Assembly (NCBI GenBank): GCA_027489965.1
Contig: JAIXZA010000053.1
Location: 57,976 to 121,975 of the forward strand
Reading direction: 5' to 3'
Source of the DNA: Verrucomicrobiaceae bacterium
GTDB taxonomy: Bacteria > Verrucomicrobiota > Verrucomicrobiia > Verrucomicrobiales > Verrucomicrobiaceae
Length of the DNA stretch: 64,000 nucleotides
This document shows, piece after piece, positions 6,538 to 29,641 of this stretch. The translations under genes were made by a program, and so were the position numbers. Numbering within the stretch: the stretch's first letter is position 1; each line of letters opens with the position of its first letter. The notes beneath the pieces are model-generated. The model saw nothing but the letters and a program-made list of their open reading frames with translations, did no database searches and was not told where the DNA came from.

Positions 6538-7098
6538 TTACTGCGCACTATCCTTCGCCTGCTGCTGACTCGCGGCATCCAGCTTGCTCATCGCATAGGG
6601 AACCTCTTGTGCGTTGGCGGGCATGCGAAGGATGACGTTTTCACCTTCCAGGCGCACAAAACCAGCCTTGATCTTTTTGCCCTCAAAATTGGTCCAAGTC
6701 ATAATCGGCGGCAGATCTTTTTTGGCCAAGCCCGCTGTCGGAGTCATTTTGGGAGCATCCTTGGTTAAGCCAGCCCCCTCAGTGATCCACTCGCGCATTG
6801 TTTCGATTTCACGACTGGAAAGATTGTCCTTCGGCGGCATATGCGCCTCATGCTCTGCGTCTGCCACGACGATAAAGAGATGACTTTCAGCAGGATTCCC
6901 AGGCACGATGGCCCCTTTTGGATTGATGTCTTTTTGAAACGTCTCTAGATCATCAAAGACATAACCAGCCTTCTTTTTTCCCGCCTTTTCACTGTGACAT
7001 TCATAGCAATGCTTTTCCAAAATAGGTTGGATGTCTTTTTTGAAATCAGCCGCTAAAGTGCTGCTGGTAATGATAAGAAGAGCTGTGAAAACTTTCAT
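6538..7098 (-). CDS. Secreted planctomycete-type cytochrome c (PSCyt1) with C-terminal SHD1-like domain
   Basis: Signal peptide, DFKKDIQPILEKHCYECH heme motif, IVPGNPAES, HMPP, WITEGA. C-terminal WTNFEGKKIKAGFVRLEGENVIL..LDAASQQ is SHD1-like. ATG at 7098 preferred over TTG at 7110. Confidence 0.85.
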   Translation of the reverse strand: MKVFTALLIITSSTLAADFKKDIQPILEKHCYECHSEKAGKKKAGYVFDDLETFQKDINPKGAIVPGNPAESHLFIVVADAEHEAHMPPKDNLSSREIETMREWITEGAGLTKDAPKMTPTAGLAKKDLPPIMTWTNFEGKKIKAGFVRLEGENVILRMPANAQEVPYAMSKLDAASQQQAKDSAQ

Positions 7099-7197
7099 GA
7101 GGAGTGTCAATCAAACGTGCAAGTCACCATGAGCTTAGATTTTGTCTTTTTCACATCCTTCTTTGCGCCCGGTCCAGCATAGCCCAATATCCCTACC

Positions 7198-8088
7198 GTG
7201 CTAGACGCCATCGACAGCTTCATCCTACACCTCGCTACCGAACGAGGCCTGTCCACCAATTACCAGATCCTGGTCCGTGGTGTTTTAGAGGCTTTTGCCT
7301 CTTGGAGTAAAGAAGATCAAAAGCTCGAAGACGTGGCCGCCGTGACAACTCAAACGCTCTCAGACTACCTCGCCCGCCGGAAGCGTGACGGCATTGCAGC
7401 CTCCAGCGCTCGCATTGAGCTGGTGGCCCTGAAGATTTTCTTCCGCTGGTTAGCCGCCCGCGGCAAGCGTGTCGGTGATCCTGCTGAACCCATCCTCCCT
7501 CCGCGCCAAGAAAAGCATCTGCCTGATACGCTGAACGAGCAGGATGCACGGACGCTTGTTGAGTCGATCACTGGAAACAGCGCCCTAGATCGCCGTGACA
7601 GAGCCATTTTAGAGCTCTTTTATGCTAGCGGCCTGCGCCTTTCTGAACTCGTTAATGCGCGATTAGAAAATCTCAGTCTCGAAGAAGGCTGGATCAGAGT
7701 AACAGGGAAAGGGAATAAAACAAGACTTTCACCCGTCGGCGGTGCAGCTCGCGACGCCCTGCAAGCTTATCTGGGTCATGGCCGGCCTGAATTGGTCGGC
7801 AAAAAGACTCAAAGTCACATCTTTCTCTCCATCCGCGGCACCGCGCTGACTCGGATGCGCGTTTATCAAATCGTTCAGGAGCGCGCCAAAACAGCCGGAC
7901 TTGAGAATCGCGTGCACCCACATCTACTCAGGCACAGCTTTGCGACCCATCTGCTGAACAATGGCGCTGATCTGCGTGTGATCCAAGAAATGCTAGGGCA
8001 CGCCGACATCTCGACGACCCAAATTTACACGCATGTGGATCAGAAGCGGCTGAAACAGGTCCATCGCCAGTTTCATCCGCGCGCTTAG
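7198..8088 (+). CDS. xerD: Site-specific tyrosine recombinase XerD
   Basis: Catalytic motifs ASGLRLSEL, VTGKGNKTR, HLLRHSFATHLL, LGHADISTTQIYTH. 296 aa ending HPRA. Housekeeping context. XerC cannot be fully excluded. Confidence 0.9.
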   Translation: MLDAIDSFILHLATERGLSTNYQILVRGVLEAFASWSKEDQKLEDVAAVTTQTLSDYLARRKRDGIAASSARIELVALKIFFRWLAARGKRVGDPAEPILPPRQEKHLPDTLNEQDARTLVESITGNSALDRRDRAILELFYASGLRLSELVNARLENLSLEEGWIRVTGKGNKTRLSPVGGAARDALQAYLGHGRPELVGKKTQSHIFLSIRGTALTRMRVYQIVQERAKTAGLENRVHPHLLRHSFATHLLNNGADLRVIQEMLGHADISTTQIYTHVDQKRLKQVHRQFHPRA

Positions 8089-8108
8089 TGTAATTTTTTT
8101 CAAATGAT

Positions 8109-8122
8109 TGAACAACTCATCA
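8109..8122 (+). promoter_or_regulatory. Imperfect palindrome resembling an ArsR/SmtB operator core
   Basis: TGAACAACTCATCA versus the SmtB-type core TGAACAnnTnTTCA, 25 bp upstream of the Cys/His-containing 129-aa gene. It overlaps TTCAA-atga-TTGAA and lies next to TCAAC-tgac-GTTGA. Confidence 0.25.
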
Positions 8123-8146
8123 ACTGACGTTGACTGAGAGTTCGTT

Positions 8147-8536
8147 ATGTTTGCTCGACTTACCCACTTCCTCATGGTTCTGCTTATGGCAGTCCCCATG
8201 TGCTTGTGTGGCGTAGCTCAGGCAAAAGAGGAAACAGGGTCATGCATGGCCTGTCACAAGTTCCTGCTTCCTGAGGACAAACCTGCGGATCAGCCGACGC
8301 ATCAATCTGACATGCCCTGCTGCCAGGGCACGCTCGAACGAAATCTTTCCCCTGACACGACTGCCACACCCCGACTGGTCTTGGTCGATTTACAGCCATG
8401 GCTGTGGCAGCGTGCCGAGGAGAGCTTCTTACCTGAAACAGGACACGAACTGAGCCTAAGCCAGTTCATTAAAGATCACGGACCGCCGCGTTTGCAGGTC
8501 CCCCTATATTACCTTCACAGCGCTCTGCTCATTTGA
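8147..8536 (+). CDS. Putative metal-sensing leader/arrest protein (DUF2946/CruR-like)
   Basis: N-terminal hydrophobic segment with CLC, then CMACH and CC. HGPP at codons 111-114 followed by a PLYYLHSALLI tail. Sits directly upstream of a Cys-rich peptide gene. Confidence 0.6.
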   Translation: MFARLTHFLMVLLMAVPMCLCGVAQAKEETGSCMACHKFLLPEDKPADQPTHQSDMPCCQGTLERNLSPDTTATPRLVLVDLQPWLWQRAEESFLPETGHELSLSQFIKDHGPPRLQVPLYYLHSALLI

Positions 8537-8706
8537 GTCGGACAGGCGAACTGCCTTGGCTATCAGCGACGAAATTGTCCGTGCGAAAGAGCACCTCAGT
8601 CCGCCGTTCTGGCGCGTCTCTCCCCAGACCGATGGGCAGGCCAATCCCTTCATGTTAAATGGCTTAAAGTAACGAAACTCAATTCAAATTCAAAACATCA
8701 AAGACT

Positions 8707-8871
8707 ATGAAAACGATCCTATCTATCCTCACTCTTGCTGCCCTTTCCACCTCAGCTTTCTCAGGTGAAGCCTGTAGCAAGTGCTGCTCTGACAAAGGCA
8801 AATCCTGCGCAGAGTGCTGCAAAGATGCTGGCAAGACCTGCGGCAAAGATTGCTGCAAAGAGAAGAAGTAA
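8707..8871 (+). CDS. Secreted 54-aa cysteine-rich metallothionein-like peptide (not in supplied ORF track)
   Basis: Manual translation: MKTILSILTLAALSTSAFSGEACSKCCSDKGKSCAECCKDAGKTCGKDCCKEKK*. Clear signal peptide, 9 Cys, A-rich leader typical of this genome's starts, and a terminator immediately downstream. Confidence 0.85.
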   Translation: MKTILSILTLAALSTSAFSGEACSKCCSDKGKSCAECCKDAGKTCGKDCCKEKK

Positions 8872-8907
8872 GCAGCCCATCGAGCGCCTCAGCGCTTGAA
8901 AACAATT

Positions 8908-8947
8908 ACCGCCGTCATCTGAATCTCAGGTGGCGGCGGTTTTGTTT
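8908..8947. terminator. Rho-independent terminator between the Cys-rich peptide gene and convergent nadA
   Basis: ACCGCCGTCATCTGA-atc-TCAGGTGGCGGCGGT stem followed by TTTGTTT. Confidence 0.85.
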
Positions 8948-8963
8948 AGTATCTATGCAGAAT

Positions 8964-9905
8964 CTACCGACTTAGCTCCAGCATTCTTAAAATCGGCTTT
9001 TCAGCACGGGCACGCAGATCTTCTGGCATCTCCACCTGCGGCGTCAGATCTCTGAGTGCATCGCGCAGCTTTTGCAGGGTATTCAGCTTCATGTAACGGC
9101 AGTCCGCGCAGGCGCAGTGACCCGTCGGACCTGGGATGAATCGCTTGTTTGGCACCTCCCGCTCCAGTCGATGCAGCATTCCGCTTTCCGTCACGATGAT
9201 GAAGGTGTTTGAGTCGCTGTTTTTGCAATAACCCACCATCTTTTCGGTCGAACAAACTTCATCTGCCAACATCCGCACCGCATAAGTGCACTCTGGATGA
9301 GCCACGACTTTTGCATCAGGATACTCGTCTTTAATCGCCTGAATGCTATCACGGGTGAACTCCACATGGACATAGCAAGAGCCCTTCCAAAGATCCATCT
9401 TGCGGCCTGTCTGCTCCATCACCCATGAACCCAGATTCTGATCCGGCACAAAAAGGATCGGACGATCTTTCGGGGCGGCTTCCACGATTTTGACCGCATT
9501 GCCACTCGTGCAGATGCAGTCGCTTAGCGCCTTCACATGACCGCTGCAATTGATGTAAGCGATCACATAATAATTCTTCTCTGCATTCGCCTTCAGGAAA
9601 GACTCCAGCTGCGGCCCAGGGCAGCTTTGCTCCAAGGAACAACCCGCGTCCCGATCTGGCAAAATCACCGTCTTCGTCGGATTGACGATTTTTGCTGTTT
9701 CCGCCATGAAATGCACACCGCAAAAAGCAATCACATCCGCATTCGTCTCTTTGGCTTTGTAAGCCAGCCCCAGAGAATCCCCCACAAAGTCAGCGATTTC
9801 CTGAATGTCCCGAGTTTGGTAGTTGTGCGCGAGAATGAGAGCATTGCGCTCCTGTTTCAGGCGGCGGATATCTTCAATAAGGCTGGGTGTGGCGGTTGCG
9901 ACCAT
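8964..9905 (-). CDS. nadA: Quinolinate synthase A
   Basis: ILAHNYQ, DFVGDSL, FCGVHFMAETAK, AGCSL, YINCS, CYVH, AHPEC, and the C-terminal C..MKLNTL motif. Confidence 0.97.
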   Translation of the reverse strand: MVATATPSLIEDIRRLKQERNALILAHNYQTRDIQEIADFVGDSLGLAYKAKETNADVIAFCGVHFMAETAKIVNPTKTVILPDRDAGCSLEQSCPGPQLESFLKANAEKNYYVIAYINCSGHVKALSDCICTSGNAVKIVEAAPKDRPILFVPDQNLGSWVMEQTGRKMDLWKGSCYVHVEFTRDSIQAIKDEYPDAKVVAHPECTYAVRMLADEVCSTEKMVGYCKNSDSNTFIIVTESGMLHRLEREVPNKRFIPGPTGHCACADCRYMKLNTLQKLRDALRDLTPQVEMPEDLRARAEKPILRMLELSR

Positions 9906-10027: not shown

Positions 10028-12598
10028 ATGAAAACAAGCCACTACCTCCAGCTCGCGAGCGCCTTAGCCCTAGGCCTATCCGCTTGTAAACCAGCTGCCA
10101 ATACTGCCGCTGATGATGAAGCACGTCGGCAGATGGAGGCAACTCGTGCTGCATATGAGAAGCAGGCTGCCGACATGCAAAGCCGTAGTGAAGCCCTGCA
10201 AAAGCAGCTCGCCGACTTGGAGCTCAGCATCAAGGACAAGGAAAATGCGGACCTCAGGGCAAAGCTGGATGCGATTGCTGCTGAAAACCAAAAACTCATG
10301 ACCGATGCAGCCTCGGCACGCAAAAAAAGTGAAGACCTGCGCGATCAACTGGCCAACAACCGCTACACGCCACCCGCCGTCAGCCAGCCCTATCAGCCAC
10401 CTTACGTGCCGCCACAGATCTCGCCCTCTGTCCCCTCCCGTCCGTGGGTGGACCCGTCTGCCGACTACTCCATGTTTTATGATTCCCTCAATCCTCATGG
10501 GCGCTGGCTGAACGTGGATGGCTACGGCTACGCCTTCAGCCCCAGAATTGGTTCCCGTTCTTCATGGCGGCCTTACGTCGATGGACGCTGGGTCTCTACC
10601 GCTCAGGGTTGGGCTTGGGATTCCAACGAACCCTTTGGCTGGGCCTGCTATCACTACGGCCGCTGGACCCGCCTTGCCCGTCACGGATGGGTTTGGATTC
10701 CCGGTCGTCAATGGGCGCCCTCATGGGTTTCTTGGCGCTACGGTAGTGATTCCGTCGGCTGGGCTCCCCTGCCCCCTAGCGTCGGTTATGGCAGCATCGG
10801 CCACGATTGTGATGCCCGTTACGGCATTGCCCCCACCAGCTATACCTTCATCCGTGCGACTAATTTTGGACGTTCTAGCTACGTCAATGTAAGCCTCTCC
10901 ATCACCAACATCACCCAGATTTTCCATCAAACGATCAACGTCACCAACATCGTTCAAGTTCGCCAACAGCAGAATAATCTCTTCATCCAGCGTGGTGGCC
11001 CTGCCTTGGACTGGGTCGAAAAACGCTGCGGTGAACGCATCGAGCGGGCACCGATTCAAGTCGTCCACACCTTAGAGCGGCCAGGAGAACGCCGCCCCGG
11101 CCACAGCGATCATGGTTTCATCGCAGCCCCGTTGCCATCAGGACGCGCCAATCGCCCGACTGAACTCCCTCGCAATGCAGAACGTGTCATAGCACCGACC
11201 GTTGTCGATGCCTGGACTGAAGTGCCAGCCGATCAACGCGACGACCTACGTAAAGCCATCACTGAACAAGCCACCGAAGCTCAACCAAAGCCCGTTCTCG
11301 CCGTCACCGACCCGATCATTGTGGAACCAGTGCGTGAATCACCCGCACAGCCAACCATCCCAGCACCAACTGTGGCCGAATTGCCAGGTCGCGGCCCAGG
11401 CCGTAATCGCGGCAAAGGAGACGCCCCAGCCATGCCACAGTTAGAGATTGCTCAAGACGCGGCCAACAAAGCTGACCTAGCCCGCCGAGATGCAGAGCGC
11501 CAGATGCAAGAAGCTCAAGCAGAGCGCGAAAAGCAGCTAGCTGAACAAAAAGCTGCTGAAAGTGCCATGGTAGCCCAACAAGAAAATCTTGCCAAAAAGC
11601 AGGCCGAAGCCATCGCCATGCAGGAGCAGCTAGCCGAGCAAGCTAAGAAAGACGCTGCCATGCGTGAAAAGCAGGCCAGTGAGATGAGCGACAAAGAAGC
11701 CGCTGCACTCAAAGAAAAACAAGCCTCCGACATGGCGGCTCAACAGGAAGAGCTCGCCAAAAAGCAGGCTGAAGCTGTAGCCATGCAGCAGCAGATCGCC
11801 GAGCAGGAAAAAAAAGCCCTGGCCATGCGTGAAGAACAAGCCGCCATCATGAAGCAGCAAGAGGCCGAGGCAGAAAAGGCCAAGGAACTTGCAATGATGG
11901 CAGCCCAGCAAGAAGCCGAAGCCCGCAAACAAGCTGAAGCAGCTTCCATGGCACAGCAAGAAGCCGCCATGCAGGCCGATGCTCTGAAACAACAACAAAT
12001 GCAAACGGCGCAACAGGAAGCAGAACAACGTAAACTCGCCGAGATGGAAGCCGGCAAAGCCCGCGAAAATGCCATGGCAGCCCAACAAGCCGCTCAGGAA
12101 GAACAAGCACGCCGCCAAGCCGAAGCTGCAGCCATGGAAGCTCAACGCGAAGCCAACATGCAGGCCCAACAGGAAGCCGCCGAACGCCAGCGCCTAGCCG
12201 CCATGGAAGCTCAACGCGAAGCCGCGATGCAGGCGCAACAAGAAGCCGCCGAACGTCAGCGCCAAGCCGCCATGGAAGCTCAGCGTGAAGCTGCCATGCA
12301 AGCCCAACAAGAAGCAGCCGAACGCCAGCGCCTAGCCGCCATGGAAGCTCAACGTGAGGCCGCTATGCAGGCCCAACAGGAAGCCGCCGAACGTCAGCGC
12401 CAAGCCGCCATGGAAGCTCAACGTGAAGCTGCGATGCGTGCACAGCAGGAAGCTCAAGAAGCAATGCGCCAACAGCAACAAGAAGCTGCCCGTCGTGCCC
12501 AAGAAGAAGCCATGCGAGCCCAGCAAGAAGCTGCCCAGCGCGCTGCCGCCGAAGAAGCGGCACGACGCGCTGCCCAGCAGCCACCGCCAGGACAATAA
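10028..12598 (+). CDS. Lipoprotein with DUF6600-type Trp/Tyr-rich domain and long Ala/Gln/Glu helical tail
   Basis: Lipobox LSAC, N-terminal coiled coil, FYDSLNPHGRW..WRPYVDGRW..EPFGWACYHYGRW..WAPSWVSWR, and a C-terminal low-complexity helical repeat region. Confidence 0.85.
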   Translation: MKTSHYLQLASALALGLSACKPAANTAADDEARRQMEATRAAYEKQAADMQSRSEALQKQLADLELSIKDKENADLRAKLDAIAAENQKLMTDAASARKKSEDLRDQLANNRYTPPAVSQPYQPPYVPPQISPSVPSRPWVDPSADYSMFYDSLNPHGRWLNVDGYGYAFSPRIGSRSSWRPYVDGRWVSTAQGWAWDSNEPFGWACYHYGRWTRLARHGWVWIPGRQWAPSWVSWRYGSDSVGWAPLPPSVGYGSIGHDCDARYGIAPTSYTFIRATNFGRSSYVNVSLSITNITQIFHQTINVTNIVQVRQQQNNLFIQRGGPALDWVEKRCGERIERAPIQVVHTLERPGERRPGHSDHGFIAAPLPSGRANRPTELPRNAERVIAPTVVDAWTEVPADQRDDLRKAITEQATEAQPKPVLAVTDPIIVEPVRESPAQPTIPAPTVAELPGRGPGRNRGKGDAPAMPQLEIAQDAANKADLARRDAERQMQEAQAEREKQLAEQKAAESAMVAQQENLAKKQAEAIAMQEQLAEQAKKDAAMREKQASEMSDKEAAALKEKQASDMAAQQEELAKKQAEAVAMQQQIAEQEKKALAMREEQAAIMKQQEAEAEKAKELAMMAAQQEAEARKQAEAASMAQQEAAMQADALKQQQMQTAQQEAEQRKLAEMEAGKARENAMAAQQAAQEEQARRQAEAAAMEAQREANMQAQQEAAERQRLAAMEAQREAAMQAQQEAAERQRQAAMEAQREAAMQAQQEAAERQRLAAMEAQREAAMQAQQEAAERQRQAAMEAQREAAMRAQQEAQEAMRQQQQEAARRAQEEAMRAQQEAAQRAAAEEAARRAAQQPPPGQ
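12128..12457 (+). repeat. In-frame 69-bp tandem repeat (23 aa; 4 full copies plus a partial fifth)
   Basis: Unit AA(M)EAQREAAMQAQQEAAERQR[L/Q] starts at 12128, 12197, 12266, 12335 and 12404. The last residue alternates L,Q,L,Q. Confidence 0.95.
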
Positions 12599-12673: not shown

Positions 12674-13129
12674 ATGCGCTTTCTCTTTCTTTTAACAGTG
12701 ACAGTCCTTTCGGCCTGTACTTCTAGTGAATCAGAGAGCGAGACACGACCCACGGGCCGAAATGTCCTCGACGACACAACTTTAAAATCAGCTGCTTCGG
12801 GGAACATCAGTTTCACCGAGCATGTGAAGCCCATTCTTGAGGCCAAGTGCGCCATGTGTCACAACCAAAACGGGCTTCCTGGTCGCCTCGGTTTCGCCAG
12901 CCGAGAAGCAGCCGTCAAAACTGGCACTCTCGGTATCTTCATCGTTCCTGGACATCCCGAAAGTAGCAGGCTCCTCACGCATCTAACCAGCGCTCATTCT
13001 TCCGTGAATGCCATGCCTCCTGTCGGTGAAACACTGACTTCAGAAGAAACAGCTCTTTTGAGTCGCTGGATCAGCCAAGGTGCCATTTGGCCAGCCGGAG
13101 AGGCTGGCAAGCTGATCACAGAACGCTGA
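12674..13129 (+). CDS. Planctomycete-type cytochrome c lipoprotein (PSCyt1)
   Basis: Lipobox LSAC, ISFTEHVKPILEAKCAMCH, IVPGHPESSRL, AMPPVGETL, WISQGA. Confidence 0.85.
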   Translation: MRFLFLLTVTVLSACTSSESESETRPTGRNVLDDTTLKSAASGNISFTEHVKPILEAKCAMCHNQNGLPGRLGFASREAAVKTGTLGIFIVPGHPESSRLLTHLTSAHSSVNAMPPVGETLTSEETALLSRWISQGAIWPAGEAGKLITER

Positions 13130-22426: not shown

Positions 22427-25400
22427 ATGAAGCTCTTCAAAATCACTCGCTGCCGCCTACTCTTGGCTATGCTGATCTGCCTGGGGGCGGGGTCAAGCTC
22501 TGGGCAGACGGCGATCACTCTGGAAGCAAACCAGAAGATGCTCTCATCAGGTATGCGCATTGAGTTCGGCAGCATCGATATTGGTGGGTATAAGACGCAG
22601 AATTTCACTGTCACGAACGCTAGCCTCTCCCCGGTCACAGGGCTGACCTGCACGCTGGATGGCGCGAATGCAGCGGACTTTGTGCTGAGCACACCGACAC
22701 TGGCAGATCTTGCCGTGGGAGCGGCGGTCAGCTTCTCGGTGACTTATGTGCCGGAGCTAGAGGGCAAAACCTCAGTCGCTGCGCTGCATGTGCGCAGTTC
22801 TGGAGGCAGCTCCTATGAGCTGCCACTGACGGCCACGGGCGGCAATCTGAACCCGACTGTGCTGGTGGAGGAGGTCGGCGGAGCTGTGGTGACCAGCCTC
22901 AGCCGACCTCTGGATTTCGGCAGCCCGATGATCGGCCAAAGTACCAGCAAGACTTTCCGCATCACCAACACCGGCACAGCTCCGCTGCGGGAGGTGAGTG
23001 TGGCGCGGGATGATCCTTGGAACTACAGGAACTTCTGGTCTATTGGCATTTATCCCACTTACACTTACCAATACGAGAGTGGCTTCACCGTCACTGGCGA
23101 CATCACCAGCGTCATCCCCCCTGGCGAAAGCCGTAGCATCACCGTCACGTGGAAGCCCTATGAAACGGTGCAGAAGACTCGCAACATCACACTTTCCTGG
23201 GCCATACGCTACCCACCGCCGCCACCGACAACCTATGATTTAACAAGTGACCCAAACCTTCTTTTCGCAGGTCAGGCCACCAGCATCATTATCGAAGGCA
23301 TTTACCTCAGCCCACGCCCCTACATCCCGCCTGTCCGCTTCAGCATCCCTGTTACCGGAGCTGCTGTGCCGTATGTTGTGACTCCCACACCGCTGAGTGG
23401 TCTGCAGTATCATCTGGGCAATGAAAACTCCACTGGCCAACTCCTCCCTAACCAAGCAGGCGCGCCCCCAGCTGATCCCAGGCTAGGCCCTGTGACTTCT
23501 TCTGTTCCTGACGGCGCAGGCCTGCTCACCGACACGCTGATACGCTGGAAACCAGCCGCCGCACCTTACAACAGCCTCACCTACTACAATAGCAACGTTG
23601 ATTGGCGCAACTACGCGCAGATGCAGCTCAGGCTAATCCCGATCACCGTGCCGGACATTGAAGCCACCCAAAAGCTAGGAGTGACTGTCGTTAAAAGTCC
23701 CAGGTCCGTCTTCGTCACGGGCACAGGCAGTGCAGCGGAGGCGCTGGGTAGCCGTATGGCGGTTGCCTTTACCGGTGGCACTCGGCTCAGTCATTCGGAT
23801 ATGCAGCTGCCTGCTGGAGACAATGTAGGCATGGAGCTATGGTTCAAGCCTGCAAGCCTCTCGGGCACTCAGTGCGTAGCCTTCATGGGAGCAACAGCGG
23901 ACGCTGGCTTTGGCCTATGGCTGACTGATGGCGTGCTGCAAGGCCGTGCTGGCAGCCTCTCCATCCTAGCTAGCACACCGGCGCTGGCGGTGGAGGAGTG
24001 GCATCACGTCGCCTTGATCGTGCAAAGTGGTAGCGCCAAACTCTACGTCGATGGTGAATTCGCAGGCAGTGCCGCGAGCGTGACCTTACCAGAAACTGTA
24101 AAGGGGCTCTCCATCGGTGCGATGCACGATGGCAGCAGCGGCTACGAAGGGCAGGTCGATGAGCTGCGTTTGTTTGAAATTCCCGCCAATGACTTCGATG
24201 TTACCCGCCACCTGCTCGCCAATGCGCGGCCATCGGCTTCACTAGATCAGACGGCACTCGACTATGGCCAAGTGCTGCCGGCGGCCATTTCGCGCCGCAG
24301 CGCTATCTTGGCAAATATTGGCCCAGGCTGGCTACGGGTGCTTTCCATGGAACTCATGGGCGATGGTGCTAGCGATTACAGCGTGTCAGCGCTGGGGCCA
24401 TACAACAGCTCCATACCCATCCAGCCGAATGCCACACCAGCTCCAGTTTATCCTACGTATAACTGGGGATTGACGACTGTGGGTAGTCTGTTTTTTCTCG
24501 ATGGCAACAGCGTGCCCGCCAACGAAGGCGTCGGCACGAAGATCGCTTACCGAGTGGCTGTCGCACCGCAGACAAAGCTGGAGGCGGTCGTCACCCACAC
24601 GGCGGGCGCGCTAGGGACACGCCCAGCTACGCTGCGGATCACCACGAACGACCCAGCGCATCCTGTTTATGAGATCGCGCTGAATGCGACCGTGGCGGCT
24701 CCCGTGCCCCAGTCGAAGATCGAAGTCAGTTCTGATGATGCTTGGGATTGGGGCAGCCTACTAACGAATGGTCAGAGCAATCGCACCTACACCGTACGCA
24801 CGGTGGGTTCTTTACCAATGGCTAGTTTCGGCGTGGAAATCATTGGCCCAAACGCAGAAGACATCACGCTCGACACGCAAAACAACCCGATAAACAACGG
24901 GCGAGTGAGCTTTTCCGACAACGGCTCGGCCTCTATCAGAATCGATGTCCGCCCTCGTTCTAGCGGTGCGCGCTACGCGGTGCTGCGAATCACCAGTGCC
25001 GACCCTGTGCGGCCAGAAATCATCATCCCGCTCTATGGCCGTGGCGTGCAGGCCGTGCCAGAGATCGCAGTAACGGTACATGACAGCGGCGACACCCGTA
25101 GGACTTCAGTAGCAGATGGCGGCAGCGCTGTGTTTAAAGCTACGCTCTCAGGCGGGCATCACTCCTTGATGAACTGCATCGTGCATAGTATCGGCACGGG
25201 GACGCTAGAAGGTGTCAGCGCCAACATCGACGGGGCAGACGCTGCCGATTTCGCCATCGTGGGCGAGCTGCCGGCCACTCTGCCGAGTCCTCACTACTCA
25301 TATTATCATCACAACGCTGGGATCAATCTGCGCTTTACTCCTAGCCGAGTTGGCAGCCATCGTGCGGTCTTGCACATCCTCAGCAACGACGCCGACGAGA

Positions 25401-28400
25401 GCCCCTATGACATCACGCTCACAGGTGAAGGACTAGCACCCGCCCCGATCATGCAGGTGATCGACCGAGACACAGTCATCGAGTCCGGCACAGGCTTCAC
25501 CCGCATGGGAAATGCCGTCATCGGCGCGGCATCTGTCACCCAGACACTGCGTCTGCGAAATGCCGGCACTGCACCGCTGACGGGCTTCACGGCCAGCTTT
25601 AGCGGACCGAACGCCAGCGAATTCAGCGCCACGCTGCCCAGCCATATCGCCGCAGGAACGGCGGGAGATGTCATCATCGCTTTTACCCCGGAGGACATCG
25701 GCCCGCGCAGTGCTGTGCTGACGCTGACTAGCAATGCCCCAAACAACCGCACCTACCGCATGAGCCTGGGTGGCACAGGAGCTTATGGGGTGAGGTCAAA
25801 TCTCGCGCCACCGGCCATCCCAGGCTGGGTCGGCACGACGATGGCTGAGCTGCCAGATGGCAGCATCGTCATGGCTGGCTACGTGGCAGCTGGCGCAGGT
25901 GAGACAGCACCAGCAGTGCCGACGAGCAGGCTGCGCATTATTGGCAAGGATGGCAGCGAGCGAAAGCGGGCACGGCTCCAACACGTGACGATTTCAGGCA
26001 TCGTCAAAAGTATTTGCGTTCGGGCTGATGGCAGCCTGCTGCTGGCAGGCGATTTTACACGACTCTGGGGTTCCCTAAGGCCTTCAAATGTTACGACTGG
26101 TTGGATGCCACCTCCAGGTTACGATACGAGACCCTTCATTGACTGCCAAGGAGTGGCTTTGATACTCTCAGATACTGCATGGATGCCCGCTCAAATAAGT
26201 GACGTTCTTTTAACAATGAGCTCAGACGGTCAAGGCCAAGCCTACCCCTTGGCATGGAGCACCAGCTTCGCTCCACCCACGGGAACCTTCAGCGGCCGCT
26301 CTGTGGTTGCTTTACCTGATGGCAAAGTGCTCGTCGGCGGCAGTGGTAGCCTGGGTGGCAGGGCCAACCTCTTACGCCTCAATGCCAATGGCACGATCGA
26401 TCCCACCTTCACTCTGCCCGAGCCGAATGGCCCCGTGAATGCGCTGGCCATGCAGGATGATGGCAAAGTGATTGTCGGGGGAGAGTTCACCAATCTTGGT
26501 CATGACAAACTCCCCAACGAAACGACAGCCAGCACGACCATTCCTTCCACCACAACCCCACGCAGTGGTTTATGCCGGCTCAATGCCGATGGCAGCGATG
26601 ATGCCACCTTTGCCAATCGCGGATTTCGCCAAGTCATGTCCCTCGCTGTGCGTGGGGATAGCATCGCTGTCGGTGGAAAGGGACCGCAATATACAGCCAT
26701 GATCGCCGGCCCTACGACTAACTTCATCACGCCCCCACCTAACTATGTCGAGATCGATCAAGCCGTGGCGAGACTACTTGGTCGTAATGGTGCGATCCTA
26801 GCGACTCAAACCGTTATAGAACCCCCGCAAGCTGTGGCCCTGCAGCCAGGCAATCGAATGCTCTTCTCCTCACGCTTCCTGAGCTTCAACGACACCATCA
26901 CGTATCCTGATATCGCCATGCTCCAGCCAGACTCAGCGCCGAAGGAATGGTTTGGCATCAAAATCACTGCTGACGTGATGCCTACCAGCAGCGTGGAGCC
27001 CTTTCTGATCAAATACCAGCAACTTCTCGGCGCGAGCGGAGTGCCTCTCGCGATCAACGCCCTGATTGCACAAGCCGATGGCAAAGTGCTCACGGCGGGT
27101 AATTTCACCAGGGCCAAAGTAGGACTCGATCGGCGTGGGTACCGTTCTGAGGGTGATCAGCGCCTGCCCCAGCCCACTCCCTTGCTGCCAGTGCTGGACA
27201 ATTCCCCACTGCCAGCCGAGAAGCAACTGGCAGGCTTTGCGCAGCTGGATGTCGATGGGTTTTATCATGCGAGTCCTGAGGTTTATGCAGGTAGTGGTAT
27301 TCATTGGGTAGGTGCCCCCTATGAAACGGACGAGACTACAATGTCCGATGGTCTGCGACGCCTCGACTTAGGCACCTTTCATGGGAACTTGGGAGCCATT
27401 GATCAATGGCTGATTGTTCCAACCTCAAGCGCCGCCAATCCCGATGCGATTACAATCGATGGAGATGATGCTGCCGACTTTGGCTTCATACCTGCGAGTG
27501 AAGGTTCCAATCATCTGTGGCTACATTTCACCCCCAGCCATTCAGGCAAACACCAGGCAAGGCTTCACGTCCGTGAGGATGGTCTCGTCAACAGTTTCGA
27601 CATTGCCCTTGAAGCTACAGCGACCGGCCGTTTGCCCGATCAAGTGAGGCTCGCGGATACGACGGGCCGAGTGTACCAGAGCACCGAGACGCGGGACCTC
27701 GGTAGCGTTAAACTCGGCAGCTCGACCACGCTAGATTTGCGGCTCTTCAATGATGGGTTAGTCGAAAACAGCACGCCTTTTGAGCTTAGTCTTTCAGGCA
27801 TTAAGGCCAGTGACTTCAAGGTATCTCCAACAGCGATTACCAGCATCCCAGGCTCCTCGCGCAATGGTACTGGCAGTGTGCCGATCACTGTCACTTTCAC
27901 TCCCAATGACTCAGGCCCAAGCACAGCGGTACTGAATCTCGTCACGATTTCGCGTGGCCGAAATGGCGACACACGAAGCATTCCCTTCACCCTCACGCTG
28001 ACAGGCGCTGGTGTCGTAGAGTCGCCTTTCTTTATCTCACATCCGCAGGATGTAATCGTGATGAAGGGCACGCCATTCAACCTGAGCTTTGAAGCCATTC
28101 ATAATTATAGAGGCTTTGAATTTGAATGGCGTCAGCAACGAGGCAGTAGGGATGTGATCATACGTCAACAAATCAGCGTCACTCGTGGCACCGCAGGCAA
28201 TGCCATCCACAAAACCAGCGACACCCTCGCCGTGGCCAAAGCCGACGCGACCTCCGCAGGCTACTATCATGTGGTGATCCGAAATGAAGACGGCACGGCT
28301 AACTCCCGCCGCGCTAGAGTCGGCGTCGTCGAGGTGGTGAACCGTGAATTCACCACAACGATTGGCGGAGACGCCGCTTTCGGCGTCTCCGTGAGCGGTC

Positions 28401-29641
28401 CGCCAATGCCGCCTGGAAGCAACGCTTTTGATTACCAATGGCTGTTCAAGGGAGAGCCACTGACCAACTCAGCAAACGTCAATGGTACTAATGGCCCGAA
28501 CATTCGTTTCACCCAAGTCACGGCTGACCAAGAGGGTGCCTATACCTGCCAAATCGCCCTGGGCACAAAAACTCTGACCACTCCACCGATCCAACTACAC
28601 GTCGTCAGCAAGCCGCAAATCGCCAGCATTCCAGACATGAACTGGCAGGTAGGCAGACCAGTGGATTTCCAAATCCAGGCTATGCAAAAGAACCTTCGTT
28701 TCAGCATCAAAGGTCTGCCGCCAGGCGTGATCGTGAATGCGCTGACGGGTCAACTCAGCGGCAGGCCCACGAGAGCGGGTAACTACACCCTACGCATTCA
28801 GGTGGAAAATGCGGCGGGTTCCAGCAGCAGCACATCCCGCGTCGTCGTCCTACCTTTACCTGAAGACGTCTTCGGCAGCTTTTTTGGCAACATTTATCGG
28901 AATCCCGAATTCAATGACGGCCTGGGCGGCACGTGGAGTTTGACCGTCACAACGACGGGTGCCTACTCGGCCAAACTGAATCTGGCTACCAGCGAACTGA
29001 GCAGGAAGAAGAAAGGGAAAATGAAGACTCTCACGCTCTCTGGGATCATCTTGCCAAAGGGAGACTTGGCTGAGACGATGCCGGTCTCGCTGCCGCATCC
29101 CACAGGCGGTGCGGCGCTGCAGGTGAGCTTCCGGCTCACGGCTAAGACGGTCGTCAATGGCGAAGATCAGCACACGGCGGCCATTCTTTTTCTGAAAGAG
29201 AATCATCGCGATCAATCGAATGGGGCAGCTTTCGGTCGTGAAAAAACACCCAGAGCAGCCGTCGGCCGGTTCAGCAGTGGTTCTGATCAGAAATTGGATC
29301 TTTGGGTTTCCCCCAGTGGCGCTAGCATTTGGACAGCCAAGATTCAGACAGATTCAGGCCCACACACCGTGACCGGATCGGCACCCTTTATCACTTGGGG
29401 CCCGTCCTTATTTCTGCATCAAATCCTACCTCACCCGACACAGCCTTCATCCATCGTCGGTTTAGTGCAGTGGTTTGGCATTGATACTTGGTCAGGCGAA
29501 ACCGATCTGCGCAGGCCAGAGGCGGTCACGACTGAAGAAACGAATGGGATTCTGATCCCCAGGGATTCAATTCAGGCCAAGCGTGTCAAGCCGCCAGCCC
29601 CTGCCCTGCCCACTCTAGGACCTGCCCCAAAACGATTTTAG
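22427..29641 (+). CDS. 2404-aa secreted multidomain surface protein (choice-of-anchor D/ASH Ig-like repeats, LamG, delta-60 beta-propeller repeats, Ig and putative Ig domains)
   Basis: Signal peptide, repeated .DFG....G.....F.I.N.G...L..A.L.I.SND domains, LamG (WHHVAL..LYVDG..GQVDELRLF), ALAMQDDGKVIVGGEFT / RLNADGS.D.TF repeats, YQWLFKG, FSIKGLPPGV.VNALTGQLSG.PT. Confidence 0.85.
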   Translation: MKLFKITRCRLLLAMLICLGAGSSSGQTAITLEANQKMLSSGMRIEFGSIDIGGYKTQNFTVTNASLSPVTGLTCTLDGANAADFVLSTPTLADLAVGAAVSFSVTYVPELEGKTSVAALHVRSSGGSSYELPLTATGGNLNPTVLVEEVGGAVVTSLSRPLDFGSPMIGQSTSKTFRITNTGTAPLREVSVARDDPWNYRNFWSIGIYPTYTYQYESGFTVTGDITSVIPPGESRSITVTWKPYETVQKTRNITLSWAIRYPPPPPTTYDLTSDPNLLFAGQATSIIIEGIYLSPRPYIPPVRFSIPVTGAAVPYVVTPTPLSGLQYHLGNENSTGQLLPNQAGAPPADPRLGPVTSSVPDGAGLLTDTLIRWKPAAAPYNSLTYYNSNVDWRNYAQMQLRLIPITVPDIEATQKLGVTVVKSPRSVFVTGTGSAAEALGSRMAVAFTGGTRLSHSDMQLPAGDNVGMELWFKPASLSGTQCVAFMGATADAGFGLWLTDGVLQGRAGSLSILASTPALAVEEWHHVALIVQSGSAKLYVDGEFAGSAASVTLPETVKGLSIGAMHDGSSGYEGQVDELRLFEIPANDFDVTRHLLANARPSASLDQTALDYGQVLPAAISRRSAILANIGPGWLRVLSMELMGDGASDYSVSALGPYNSSIPIQPNATPAPVYPTYNWGLTTVGSLFFLDGNSVPANEGVGTKIAYRVAVAPQTKLEAVVTHTAGALGTRPATLRITTNDPAHPVYEIALNATVAAPVPQSKIEVSSDDAWDWGSLLTNGQSNRTYTVRTVGSLPMASFGVEIIGPNAEDITLDTQNNPINNGRVSFSDNGSASIRIDVRPRSSGARYAVLRITSADPVRPEIIIPLYGRGVQAVPEIAVTVHDSGDTRRTSVADGGSAVFKATLSGGHHSLMNCIVHSIGTGTLEGVSANIDGADAADFAIVGELPATLPSPHYSYYHHNAGINLRFTPSRVGSHRAVLHILSNDADESPYDITLTGEGLAPAPIMQVIDRDTVIESGTGFTRMGNAVIGAASVTQTLRLRNAGTAPLTGFTASFSGPNASEFSATLPSHIAAGTAGDVIIAFTPEDIGPRSAVLTLTSNAPNNRTYRMSLGGTGAYGVRSNLAPPAIPGWVGTTMAELPDGSIVMAGYVAAGAGETAPAVPTSRLRIIGKDGSERKRARLQHVTISGIVKSICVRADGSLLLAGDFTRLWGSLRPSNVTTGWMPPPGYDTRPFIDCQGVALILSDTAWMPAQISDVLLTMSSDGQGQAYPLAWSTSFAPPTGTFSGRSVVALPDGKVLVGGSGSLGGRANLLRLNANGTIDPTFTLPEPNGPVNALAMQDDGKVIVGGEFTNLGHDKLPNETTASTTIPSTTTPRSGLCRLNADGSDDATFANRGFRQVMSLAVRGDSIAVGGKGPQYTAMIAGPTTNFITPPPNYVEIDQAVARLLGRNGAILATQTVIEPPQAVALQPGNRMLFSSRFLSFNDTITYPDIAMLQPDSAPKEWFGIKITADVMPTSSVEPFLIKYQQLLGASGVPLAINALIAQADGKVLTAGNFTRAKVGLDRRGYRSEGDQRLPQPTPLLPVLDNSPLPAEKQLAGFAQLDVDGFYHASPEVYAGSGIHWVGAPYETDETTMSDGLRRLDLGTFHGNLGAIDQWLIVPTSSAANPDAITIDGDDAADFGFIPASEGSNHLWLHFTPSHSGKHQARLHVREDGLVNSFDIALEATATGRLPDQVRLADTTGRVYQSTETRDLGSVKLGSSTTLDLRLFNDGLVENSTPFELSLSGIKASDFKVSPTAITSIPGSSRNGTGSVPITVTFTPNDSGPSTAVLNLVTISRGRNGDTRSIPFTLTLTGAGVVESPFFISHPQDVIVMKGTPFNLSFEAIHNYRGFEFEWRQQRGSRDVIIRQQISVTRGTAGNAIHKTSDTLAVAKADATSAGYYHVVIRNEDGTANSRRARVGVVEVVNREFTTTIGGDAAFGVSVSGPPMPPGSNAFDYQWLFKGEPLTNSANVNGTNGPNIRFTQVTADQEGAYTCQIALGTKTLTTPPIQLHVVSKPQIASIPDMNWQVGRPVDFQIQAMQKNLRFSIKGLPPGVIVNALTGQLSGRPTRAGNYTLRIQVENAAGSSSSTSRVVVLPLPEDVFGSFFGNIYRNPEFNDGLGGTWSLTVTTTGAYSAKLNLATSELSRKKKGKMKTLTLSGIILPKGDLAETMPVSLPHPTGGAALQVSFRLTAKTVVNGEDQHTAAILFLKENHRDQSNGAAFGREKTPRAAVGRFSSGSDQKLDLWVSPSGASIWTAKIQTDSGPHTVTGSAPFITWGPSLFLHQILPHPTQPSSIVGLVQWFGIDTWSGETDLRRPEAVTTEETNGILIPRDSIQAKRVKPPAPALPTLGPAPKRF

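Follow-up and report, generated by a model that had tools for sequence, protein, structure and literature searches.

A 64,000-nucleotide stretch of DNA from a Verrucomicrobiaceae bacterium (contig JAIXZA010000053.1; hereafter the window) carries at positions 8707..8871 a gene for a small cysteine-rich peptide, and we conclude that it is genuine, conserved among relatives, subject to purifying selection, and transcribed. The peptide represents a new family, which lies outside all of the known families searched (Pfam, NCBIfam, the PDB, and structures compared by Foldseek). It is encoded downstream of a second gene, here called the partner, whose product appears to be built like the copper-sensing leader open reading frames (ORFs) CutF, CruR, and SilD. 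We tentatively propose that the two genes form a module in which a nascent-chain sensor of thiols or metal controls a Sec-exported, metallothionein-like peptide that would bind Cu(I) or another soft metal in the periplasm, and we regard this reading as a serious, if tentative, possibility.

A conserved gene encodes a peptide with nine cysteines

The peptide ORF comprises 54 codons on the forward strand, from an ATG start codon to a TAA stop codon, and encodes MKTILSILTLAALSTSAFSGEACSKCCSDKGKSCAECCKDAGKTCGKDCCKEKK. The product divides into a predicted signal peptide, MKTILSILTLAALSTSAFS, and a mature part, GEACSKCCSDKGKSCAECCKDAGKTCGKDCCKEKK. The features of the gene and its 3' flank are as follows.

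8707..8763, forward strand: signal peptide of the cysteine-rich peptide, 19 amino acids (predicted from sequence)
8764..8871, forward strand: mature peptide of 35 amino acids, with nine invariant cysteines in three C-x2/3-CC modules, and the stop codon
8908..8950, forward strand: intrinsic terminator, a stem of 15 bp (9 of them G-C) and then TTTGTTT, 37 nucleotides 3' of the peptide stop codon

The predicted Sec signal consists of Met-Lys, a hydrophobic stretch of 15 residues, and A-F-S before Gly20. Most homologues have A-F-A before the glycine where the window peptide has A-F-S, and the A-x-A ending of the signal peptide before Gly is kept among them. The preliminary description of this locus likewise gave a signal peptide of 19 residues, and the peptide is predicted to be exported. 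The mature part follows the pattern C-x2-CC-x6-C-x2-CC-x6-C-x3-CC and contains 9 Cys (26%), 9 Lys, 3 Asp, and 3 Glu, and it lacks aromatic, His, and Met residues; the peptide is mildly cationic, with a net charge of about +3. Re-reading of the sequence confirmed that the coordinates, the nine-cysteine pattern, and the Lys-rich composition devoid of aromatic residues had been described accurately. When antisense frames of larger genes are set aside, no other ORF in the 64-kb window pairs a hydrophobic N-terminus with at least 10% Cys.

Homologues were found by three routes. A word-indexed search of 5.8 billion proteins returned 30 clusters with 63-89% identity, an exhaustive profile search of 1.84 billion cluster representatives returned 39 representative clusters, and a scan of one genome per GTDB species located the gene at 56 loci. 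All nine cysteines are invariant in an alignment of 38 diverse homologues, which excludes the possibility, raised in the preliminary description, that the cysteines are not conserved. Pooled over 58 distinct nucleotide sequences (synonymous divergence, pS, about 0.5-0.6), the ratio of nonsynonymous to synonymous divergence (pN/pS) is lower in the mature part (0.24) than in the signal peptide (0.63), and the Cys codons alternate synonymously between TGC and TGT across the family. The named carriers are all Verrucomicrobiaceae (Prosthecobacter, Brevifollis, and Phragmitibacter, in addition to unnamed metagenome-assembled genomes, or MAGs), and two of them are cultured, namely Brevifollis gellanilyticus NBRC 108608 (locus L025) and Prosthecobacter fluviatilis KACC 12649 (locus L053). 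The window itself matches MAG contig JAIXOU010000105.1 (L010), in which the peptide is 100% identical; an exact-sequence look-up of the contig index gave no match for the window's own peptide. The gene seems to occur in one copy and to be inherited vertically, with synteny partly preserved, and the family is abundant in metagenomes from lakes, rivers, soil, and sludge.

The peptide ORF is also represented in RNA. Four freshwater metatranscriptomes from different studies cover it at a word depth of 6-32, and the flanking xerD-like and nadA genes have near-zero depth in the same four datasets; contigs from such data indicate presence and not quantity. A 226-nucleotide RNA contig from soil (X58), which is 100% identical to the P. 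fluviatilis locus, begins 56 nucleotides before the ATG, ends shortly after the stop codon, and thus holds the peptide gene only, without the partner. An ORF of only 54 codons that is overlapped by other frames on both strands, as is the case here, could be a chance frame or an annotation artefact. Conservation of the frame, the signal peptide, and all cysteines over 56 species, together with purifying selection and RNA coverage, refutes that explanation, to which we assign virtually no probability.

Comparison of homologues changed one element of the preliminary description, which had given an 11-residue repeat in the mature part. Many relatives have C-x2-CC-x3-C-x2-CC-x6-C-x3-CC, with x3 rather than x6 between modules 1 and 2, which indicates that the conserved unit is the three-Cys module and not an 11-residue period. 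A single long helix with a stripe of cysteines, as in a Csp-like bundle, was considered from the 11-residue period and dropped based on the three-residue deletions between modules 1 and 2 and on the two short helices predicted by AlphaFold2. In that model, which was computed with the family alignment and has moderate confidence in the mature part (predicted local distance difference test score, pLDDT, about 77), helices at residues 22-29 and 34-41 each hold one C-x2-CC module, and the third module is coil.

Searches of known families gave no relative of the peptide. Neither Pfam-A (hmmscan, E<=1) nor NCBIfam (E<=10) contained a matching family, and the Pfam scan included no match to DUF2282. 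A sequence-profile search of the PDB with the peptide family had no match at E<=10, and Foldseek comparison of the model with the PDB produced one meaningless match (E 7.5) and no structural relative.

Several members of the family depart from the common form. Variant P0056 has a lipobox or lipoprotein signal (LSAC before G), P0055 combines the same signal peptide with a different Asp-rich tail that contains many Cys, and three others (P0059, P0060, and P0063) contain 6-7 Cys. A frameshifted copy is the apparent nature of P0065, and P0057 (2454 amino acids), a eukaryotic sushi/CUB-type protein, was rejected as a spurious match. In the peptide genes of the species pairs L018/L025, L053/L059, and L053/L061, Cys codons are almost always TGC, and fourfold degenerate sites in these pairs are 0.81-0.88 conserved in the peptide gene versus 0.45-0.51 in the adjacent partner ORF. 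Conservation of such sites suggests either strong codon selection through high expression or an RNA-level constraint within the peptide gene.

The peptide gene is paired with an upstream gene for a cysteine-rich protein

The partner gene and the motifs of its product are listed below.

8147..8536, forward strand: partner gene, encoding a Cys-rich protein of 129 amino acids that is predicted to be exported and largely disordered; putative nascent-chain metal sensor or leader ORF
8147..8224, forward strand: N-terminal export signal or membrane helix, residues 1-26, with P-x-C-x-C(C) and a possible A-Q-A cleavage site before K (from the sequence and alignments A3 and A5)
8243..8254, forward strand: invariant CxxC, C33 and C36 (from alignments)
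8315..8323, forward strand: P-C-C / C-P-C-C motif, residues 57-59, with C58 invariant (from alignments)
8480..8488, forward strand: G-P-P motif, residues 112-114, a candidate ribosome-arrest site, conserved in at least 90% of A5
8501..8533, forward strand: C-terminal tail PLYYLHSALLI (family consensus PLY.RHCALL[IL])

Wherever enough upstream sequence is available, a homologue of the partner gene precedes the peptide gene on the same strand at a distance of 117-263 nucleotides; L036 is the one exception. Spacing and motif counts were taken over 54 distinct partner loci, and the pairing includes divergent partner copies in L037 and L060. At L036 (5773-6001), a xerD-like gene ends 228 nucleotides before the peptide ATG. 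Wider synteny, which involves xerD, nadA, and the gene for a PSCyt1 protein, is restricted to closer relatives, and other lineages have different flanking genes, which indicates that the gene pair is itself the conserved unit. The terminator at 8908..8950 closes this two-gene unit, and equivalent terminators lie 3' of the peptide gene in L007 and L053.

RNA contigs connect the two genes. A single contig, X12 (8163-8873), spans the partner and peptide genes, as does X42, and X23 crosses the intergenic leader. Contig X28 consists of the partner ORF and only 87 nucleotides of leader and ends inside the conserved first hairpin described below. Together with the peptide-only contig X58, this pattern fits a bicistronic unit that may have an internal switch in termination or RNA processing; assembly breaks or a second promoter would fit equally.

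The partner evolves differently from the peptide. Its ORF stays open at 117-139 amino acids across members, while identity is 24-57% versus 55-98% for the peptide. The pN/pS of the partner is about 0.7, from which it follows that only its motifs are constrained. In alignments, the invariant or near-invariant positions are P17, C19, C21, C33, C36, C58, R65, P75, G112-P113-P114, P119, L127, and L128. The first three of these fall in the N-terminal hydrophobic helix, which is present in all members. In relatives, the G-P-P motif takes the form RAPP, RGPP, HPPP, or RPPP, and the C-terminal tail persists even where the PP is lost. AlphaFold2 modeled the partner with low scores (pLDDT 56; predicted template modeling score 0.21), only the N-terminal helix (residues 2-15) being confident, and the body of the protein is predicted to be disordered.

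These features bear on whether the partner is a regulator. Instead, it could be a membrane-anchored protein that works with the peptide, for example by loading or unloading it as a thiol-based metallochaperone or part of a transporter, or by keeping it reduced or oxidizing it as a dedicated thiol-disulfide factor. The conserved Cys within the N-terminal hydrophobic helix (P-x-C-x-C-C) recall the vicinal Cys pair of MerT, an example of a membrane-embedded metal site, and along with the CxxC and CPCC motifs they would suit such a role. So would the tail, which runs 15 residues past the PP and is kept where the PP is lost, as expected of a finished protein more than of a pure arrest peptide. However, the body of the partner evolves rapidly, as the pN/pS and identity values above indicate, and is predicted to be disordered; one species (L036) has lost the partner and kept the peptide; and the long conserved leader, along with RNA contigs that end or start inside it, points to regulation. 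We judge a role as a functional protein partner unlikely, and we continue with the proposal that the partner is a sensor.

The two genes are separated by a partly structured leader

Two features describe the region between the genes.

8537..8706, forward strand: intergenic leader of 170 nucleotides, with a structured 5' part and a last segment of ~45 nucleotides that is A/C-rich, G-poor, and unpaired
8581-8594, forward strand: leader hairpin GTGC-GAAAGA-GCAC, the stem of which varies by lineage with complementarity kept

The 5' two-thirds of the leader fold stably. In folds of 29 loci, the 40 nucleotides before the peptide ATG have an unpaired probability of 0.55-0.92, mostly 0.65-0.9, and no Shine-Dalgarno sequence was found ahead of the ATG in the last 40-50 nucleotides of the leader. 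Cytosine exceeds guanine in 54/54 leaders. Between closely related species, conservation of the leader exceeds that of the fourfold degenerate sites of the partner (e.g., 0.90 versus 0.60 and 0.77 versus 0.52). RNAalifold applied to a MAFFT alignment of 20 leaders recovered just 2 pairs because the alignment is not structure-aware. Examination of four loci revealed neither a consistent sigma-70-like promoter nor a consistent intrinsic terminator inside the leader, and a search of window positions 8000..9000 against Rfam returned only two chance snoRNA-like matches.

A hairpin with a purine-rich GAAAG/GAAGC loop recurs 40-90 nucleotides after the partner stop codon in L013, L014-L020, L025-L046, and L051-L062, with stems that include GTGC/GCAC, GGCGC/GCGCC, GCGTT/GACGC, GCGTCTG/CAGACGC, and others. 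In many loci, a second hairpin of the GGGCAT...ATGCCC type lies nearer the peptide gene. Leader hairpins were found by searching, which makes this evidence semi-quantitative.

The partner resembles leader ORFs of the CutF, CruR, and SilD type in architecture

According to the reports on these systems, CruR of Bordetella pertussis (cruR-bfrG), one of two characterized DUF2946 members, is an upstream ORF whose product detects copper while still nascent, by means of the CXXC that is the hallmark of copper sensing in DUF2946/CruR. Through arrest at a RAPP motif at the C-terminus, whose spacing from the CXXC is conserved, it controls Rho-dependent termination before the downstream transporter gene (PMC9426467). 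The other member, CutF of Rhodobacter capsulatus, is described as a 118-amino-acid protein, exported by Sec and the signal recognition particle, with CXXXC and a C-terminal GPPPRL, and its copper-dependent stalling is reported to melt a stem-loop that hides the cutO ribosome-binding site (10.1101/2022.11.11.516240, 10.1101/2025.02.05.636593, PMC8456105). The readout in the CutF model is the presence or absence of a disulfide on the nascent chain. The same body of work defines CutF-like ORFs as those with fewer than 150 amino acids, an N-terminal signal (a signal peptide or an N-in/C-out helix), PP in the last 15 residues, and a same-strand downstream gene within 1000 nucleotides, and describes clusters that have very low mutual sequence similarity and include CopL, SilD, and CusD as named members. 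The ORFs of the Cys type that have been characterized are overwhelmingly tied to copper or silver genes according to these accounts, although not all CutF-like sensors are copper-specific. Downstream neighbors listed in two surveys include multicopper oxidases, resistance-nodulation-division (RND) efflux components, TonB-dependent transporters, PCuAC, CusF, HupE/UreJ, and NosZ/NosR.

The partner shares several elements of this architecture. Its members have 117-139 amino acids and, in all cases, an N-terminal hydrophobic helix; the CXXC or CXXXC of CutF-like ORFs has a counterpart in C33-x2-C36, which is invariant in A5; and a same-strand gene follows within 117-263 nucleotides in 54 loci, with RNA contigs that span both genes. 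Like CutF, CruR, and SilD, the partner is the first gene of its unit and is followed by a long leader and then by a gene for an exported protein (here predicted), and like CutF-like ORFs in general it has a poorly conserved body, here predicted to be disordered. A C-proximal proline motif ([RH][AG]PP / PPP) at a fixed spacing from the Cys motif, as in CutF, CruR, and SilD, is present in most but not all partner loci, generally just short of the last 15 residues, and the G-P-P of the partner compares with GPPPRL in CutF and RAPP in CruR. The downstream gene sets the pair apart, in that it encodes a tiny Cys-rich peptide as opposed to the oxidase, efflux pump, TonB-dependent transporter, or chaperone of known systems, and Verrucomicrobiota are not among the phyla named in the available text of the CutF-like surveys.

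The C-terminal tail of the partner resembles that of SilD. SilD from Cupriavidus metallidurans (silD-silCBA, pMOL30) ends in RPPPRPLAILHCCFRI, which resembles ..GPPR..PLY..HCALLI in the partner, and the likeness of the tail PLY..HCALLI to PLAILHCCFRI in SilD is part of this match. The SilD C-terminus ...VPRPPPRPLAILHCCFRI is strikingly like that of the window partner (...HGPPRLQVPLYYLHSALLI) and of the Brevifollis partner (...RPPPDPKVPLYQRHCALLI). At an equal distance from the end, the partner tail can also be aligned with PPLAILHCCFRI at the C-terminus of the SilD family, though not to a statistically significant degree. Two SilD homologues carry a precomputed match to PF11162 (DUF2946), and although the partner family has no Pfam assignment, DUF2946 is its only recurrent weak match (2/32 members); one such match is full-length, and the end of the profile coincides with the second Pro of RGPP. 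No match to the partner was found above threshold in NCBIfam or at E<=10 in a sequence-profile search of the PDB, and tblastn against 72,556 plasmids returned chance matches only (E 4-9). Based on architecture, we suggest that the partner is built like a CutF/CruR/SilD leader ORF and may work in a similar manner; we do not assign it to that family and claim no homology.

A readout based on the disulfide state of a nascent chain, as described for CutF, could report redox conditions equally well. The peptide might then be a periplasmic thiol reservoir or redox buffer, serving as an oxidant scavenger or electron donor, with the partner sensing thiol-oxidative stress. The very high thiol density of the peptide agrees with this alternative, but a ribosomally made periplasmic thiol buffer of this kind is without precedent and no linked reductase or recycling system was present among the neighbors scanned, so that we consider it very unlikely.

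A role of the gene pair in soft-metal handling is proposed

The proposal that the peptide binds metal in the periplasm begins with its likeness to metallothioneins. It has the composition by which metallothioneins are operationally defined (35 residues, 26% Cys, three C-x2/3-CC modules, and an absence of Phe, Tyr, Trp, and His), and with the vertebrate and yeast beta-domains and the bacterial proteins SmtA/BmtA and MymT it shares small size, CC and C-x-x-C motifs, richness in Lys, and a lack of aromatic residues. Little structure is predicted in the absence of metal, a further likeness, and nine cysteines are what a beta-domain cluster of M(II)3 or Cu(I)~6 uses as ligands. The metallothionein-like composition noted beforehand, with nine Cys, many Lys, and no aromatic residues, is borne out, and it comes with no match to any characterized bacterial metallothionein family. 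Unlike metallothioneins, the peptide has a regular three-module C-x2/3-CC layout, is confined to one bacterial family, and has no sequence relationship to them; SmtA/BmtA (Pfam Metallothio_Pro) have a zinc-finger-like fold and use Cys and His ligands, whereas the peptide has no His and no match to that profile. It also has a predicted Sec signal, whereas the known bacterial metallothioneins are cytoplasmic.

The ligand itself could be a metal other than copper, such as Zn(II) or Cd(II) in an M3S9 cluster as in the metallothionein beta-domain, Hg(II), or As(III)/Sb(III) bound at three three-Cys sites. The M(II)3Cys9 cluster of the beta-domain has nine Cys ligands, and the nine of the peptide are arranged in three modules of exactly three Cys with vicinal CC pairs. 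Vicinal Cys pairs are Hg and As ligands in MerT, MerA, and ArsD. The CutF-like literature is again relevant to both sides, in that sensors of this kind are not all specific for copper but the characterized Cys-type ORFs are linked overwhelmingly to copper and silver genes. In addition, no mer, ars, czc, or znt genes were present among the neighbors scanned. We consider a ligand other than copper improbable, and we retain Cu(I) as the first candidate.

A peptide that is small, secreted, Cys-rich, and mildly cationic could also have no metal role and be a disulfide-rich toxin (bacteriocin-like), signal, inhibitor, or structural peptide, with the partner as an immunity or maturation factor. An adjoining gene for a small membrane protein is a common layout for bacteriocin and immunity genes, and Sec-exported Cys are normally oxidized in the periplasm. 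However, the Cys count is invariably odd (nine), and vicinal CC pairs are poor disulfide formers. Furthermore, the mature part has no hydrophobic or aromatic residue and, at a pN/pS of 0.24, is conserved rather than diversifying; the gene, which seems to be single-copy and inherited vertically with synteny partly kept, has no adjacent genes for transporters, proteases, or modification; and Foldseek finds no toxin-like or knottin-like fold. Taken together, these observations make a disulfide-rich peptide quite unlikely, and metal binding is the reading that we develop here.

Two kinds of exported thiolate proteins offer comparisons. Bufferins and other MNIO ribosomally synthesized and post-translationally modified peptides (RiPPs) have small Sec-exported precursors whose Cys underlie periplasmic copper binding. 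Genes for these precursors always adjoin those for a partner protein and for an MNIO enzyme (DUF692). The Pfam content of the window and of two other genomic contexts showed neither DUF692 nor DUF2063 near the peptide gene. Csp1 copper storage proteins, which occur in methanotrophs and others, are exported by Tat and form tetramers of a pre-folded four-helix bundle of about 120 residues whose core is lined by Cys, as opposed to the 35 residues, two short predicted helices, Sec-type MKTIL... signal without twin arginine, and absence of a Pfam match that characterize the peptide. It is largely correct, but with exceptions, to regard an exported thiolate store of metal as unusual, since Csp1, a store of Cu(I), provides a precedent outside the cytoplasm (review PMC7558416).

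According to the proposed mechanism, the peptide would be exported unfolded through Sec, and its nine thiolates would then capture a soft metal, with Cu(I) as the first candidate, either as a cluster or at three three-Cys sites, which would enable the peptide to act as a periplasmic metal buffer, store, or chaperone. The partner would set peptide production. As its nascent chain threads into the periplasm, the Cys motifs would bind metal or form disulfides, and the state of the cysteines would alter the pulling force on the chain and with it the dwell time of the ribosome at G-P-P or in the tail. The dwell time or position of the ribosome would in turn decide whether transcription and translation run through the structured, C-rich leader into the peptide gene. 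A CruR-like switch in transcription termination or RNA processing is likelier than unmasking of a ribosome-binding site as in CutF because no hairpin masks the peptide start codon, and the switch could be antitermination of a Rho-type event, as for CruR. Control could run in either direction, with induction by excess metal for detoxification or by scarcity for storage. We infer export, metal binding, the choice of metal, and every regulatory step, whereas the existence of the gene, its pairing with the partner, and the architecture of the partner are observed. The conserved CutF/CruR/SilD-like upstream gene lends contextual support to the metal hypothesis.

Several observations weigh against this proposal. 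Metal binding by the peptide is argued from composition and analogy, and in the oxidizing periplasm the nine Cys could form four disulfides and leave one free thiol. No gene for copper or another metal was found among the 17 other window ORFs scanned or among neighbors elsewhere. For the partner, most members have 15-16 residues between the PP motif and the C-terminus (a few have 10-11), as compared with 2-13 in CutF, CruR, and SilD, which puts PP one or two residues beyond the published limit of 15; it is missing at the expected position in 11/54 loci; and the distance from the Cys (CPC) motif to PP is 54-57 residues in most loci versus about 41-45 in CutF, CruR, and SilD. The best DUF2946 match (E 0.024) scored 15.8 bits against a cut-off of 23.7 bits, hhalign of the partner with a purpose-built SilD family alignment matched only 12-13 residues of the tail (P about 0.03), and scores in hidden Markov model searches against that alignment were no better than those of shuffled decoys. 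At the level of the unit, the species represented by L036 (MAG VAR_18_concoct_94_sub) keeps the peptide without a partner ORF, and the pair differs from CutF in having no stem-loop that masks the ribosome-binding site, with no hairpin over the peptide start codon in any of the 29 loci folded. Finally, the RNA evidence consists of assembled metatranscriptome contigs without strand information, which may include DNA and whose ends may be assembly breaks.

We also entertain, with greater reserve, a broader form of the proposal, in which the pair is a self-contained and previously undescribed soft-metal module with a CutF/CruR-type nascent-chain transmembrane sensor that directly gates a Sec-exported metallothionein; the peptides would then be the first bacterial periplasmic family of the metallothionein type and a new cargo for a stalling sensor, in Verrucomicrobiota, a phylum in which neither is known to have been studied. 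The literature searched contains no description of the peptide family, of the partner family, or of a Sec-exported metallothionein-like peptide downstream of a CutF-like ORF, and the classes of downstream neighbors given in the available text of the surveys include no such Cys-rich peptide. Bacterial thiolate-rich metal buffers are thought to be essentially cytoplasmic, and periplasmic copper handling is credited to Met/His proteins, multicopper oxidases, and efflux pumps. A nine-Cys peptide that is conserved and carries a predicted Sec signal would add a new kind of player and raise the question of how its thiols stay functional in an oxidizing compartment. Should the partner prove to be a sensor like CutF or CruR, no smaller sensor-effector unit for extracytoplasmic metal would be known, and stalling-based metal sensing would reach Verrucomicrobiota and gain a new output. 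Environmental abundance and transcription in situ suggest that the family may matter for the trace-metal ecology of freshwater Verrucomicrobiaceae, and the two cultured carrier strains make the hypothesis directly testable.

Other genes in the window and at related loci

In the window, nadA follows the peptide gene on the opposite strand. At L007 (10259-10483) and L001 (10265-10579), a small ORF of 74-104 amino acids comes after the peptide gene on the same strand, and one of the two has a weak GYF_2 match; the window has no such downstream ORF. Upstream, at 6538-7110 on the reverse strand, the window encodes a small secreted protein with a Planctomycete cytochrome c motif (PSCyt1 match, E 1e-11), a homologue of which (35-37% identity) also adjoins the peptide pair in L007-L009 and L022, where the genes are arranged differently. 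A second small secreted protein with this motif, which contains KPILEAKCAMCHN, is encoded at 12674-13129 on the forward strand.

Three larger ORFs lie on the forward strand. The ORF at 10028-12598 encodes 856 amino acids, with DUF6600 followed by a very long Ala/Gln/Glu-rich region of near-perfect tandem repeats (AAMEAQREAAMQAQQEAAERQR...), and its product is probably a coiled-coil surface or periplasmic protein. At 30586-32919, an ORF of 777 amino acids fuses a Mur ligase (MurC-type domains) to MurB (FAD_binding_4 and MurB_C). The giant ORF at 22427-29641 (2404 amino acids) combines ASH/HYDIN/Cep192-like Ig domains, Laminin_G_3, DUF5122 beta-propeller repeats, and He_PIG, and its product is probably a cell-surface protein that resembles adhesins.

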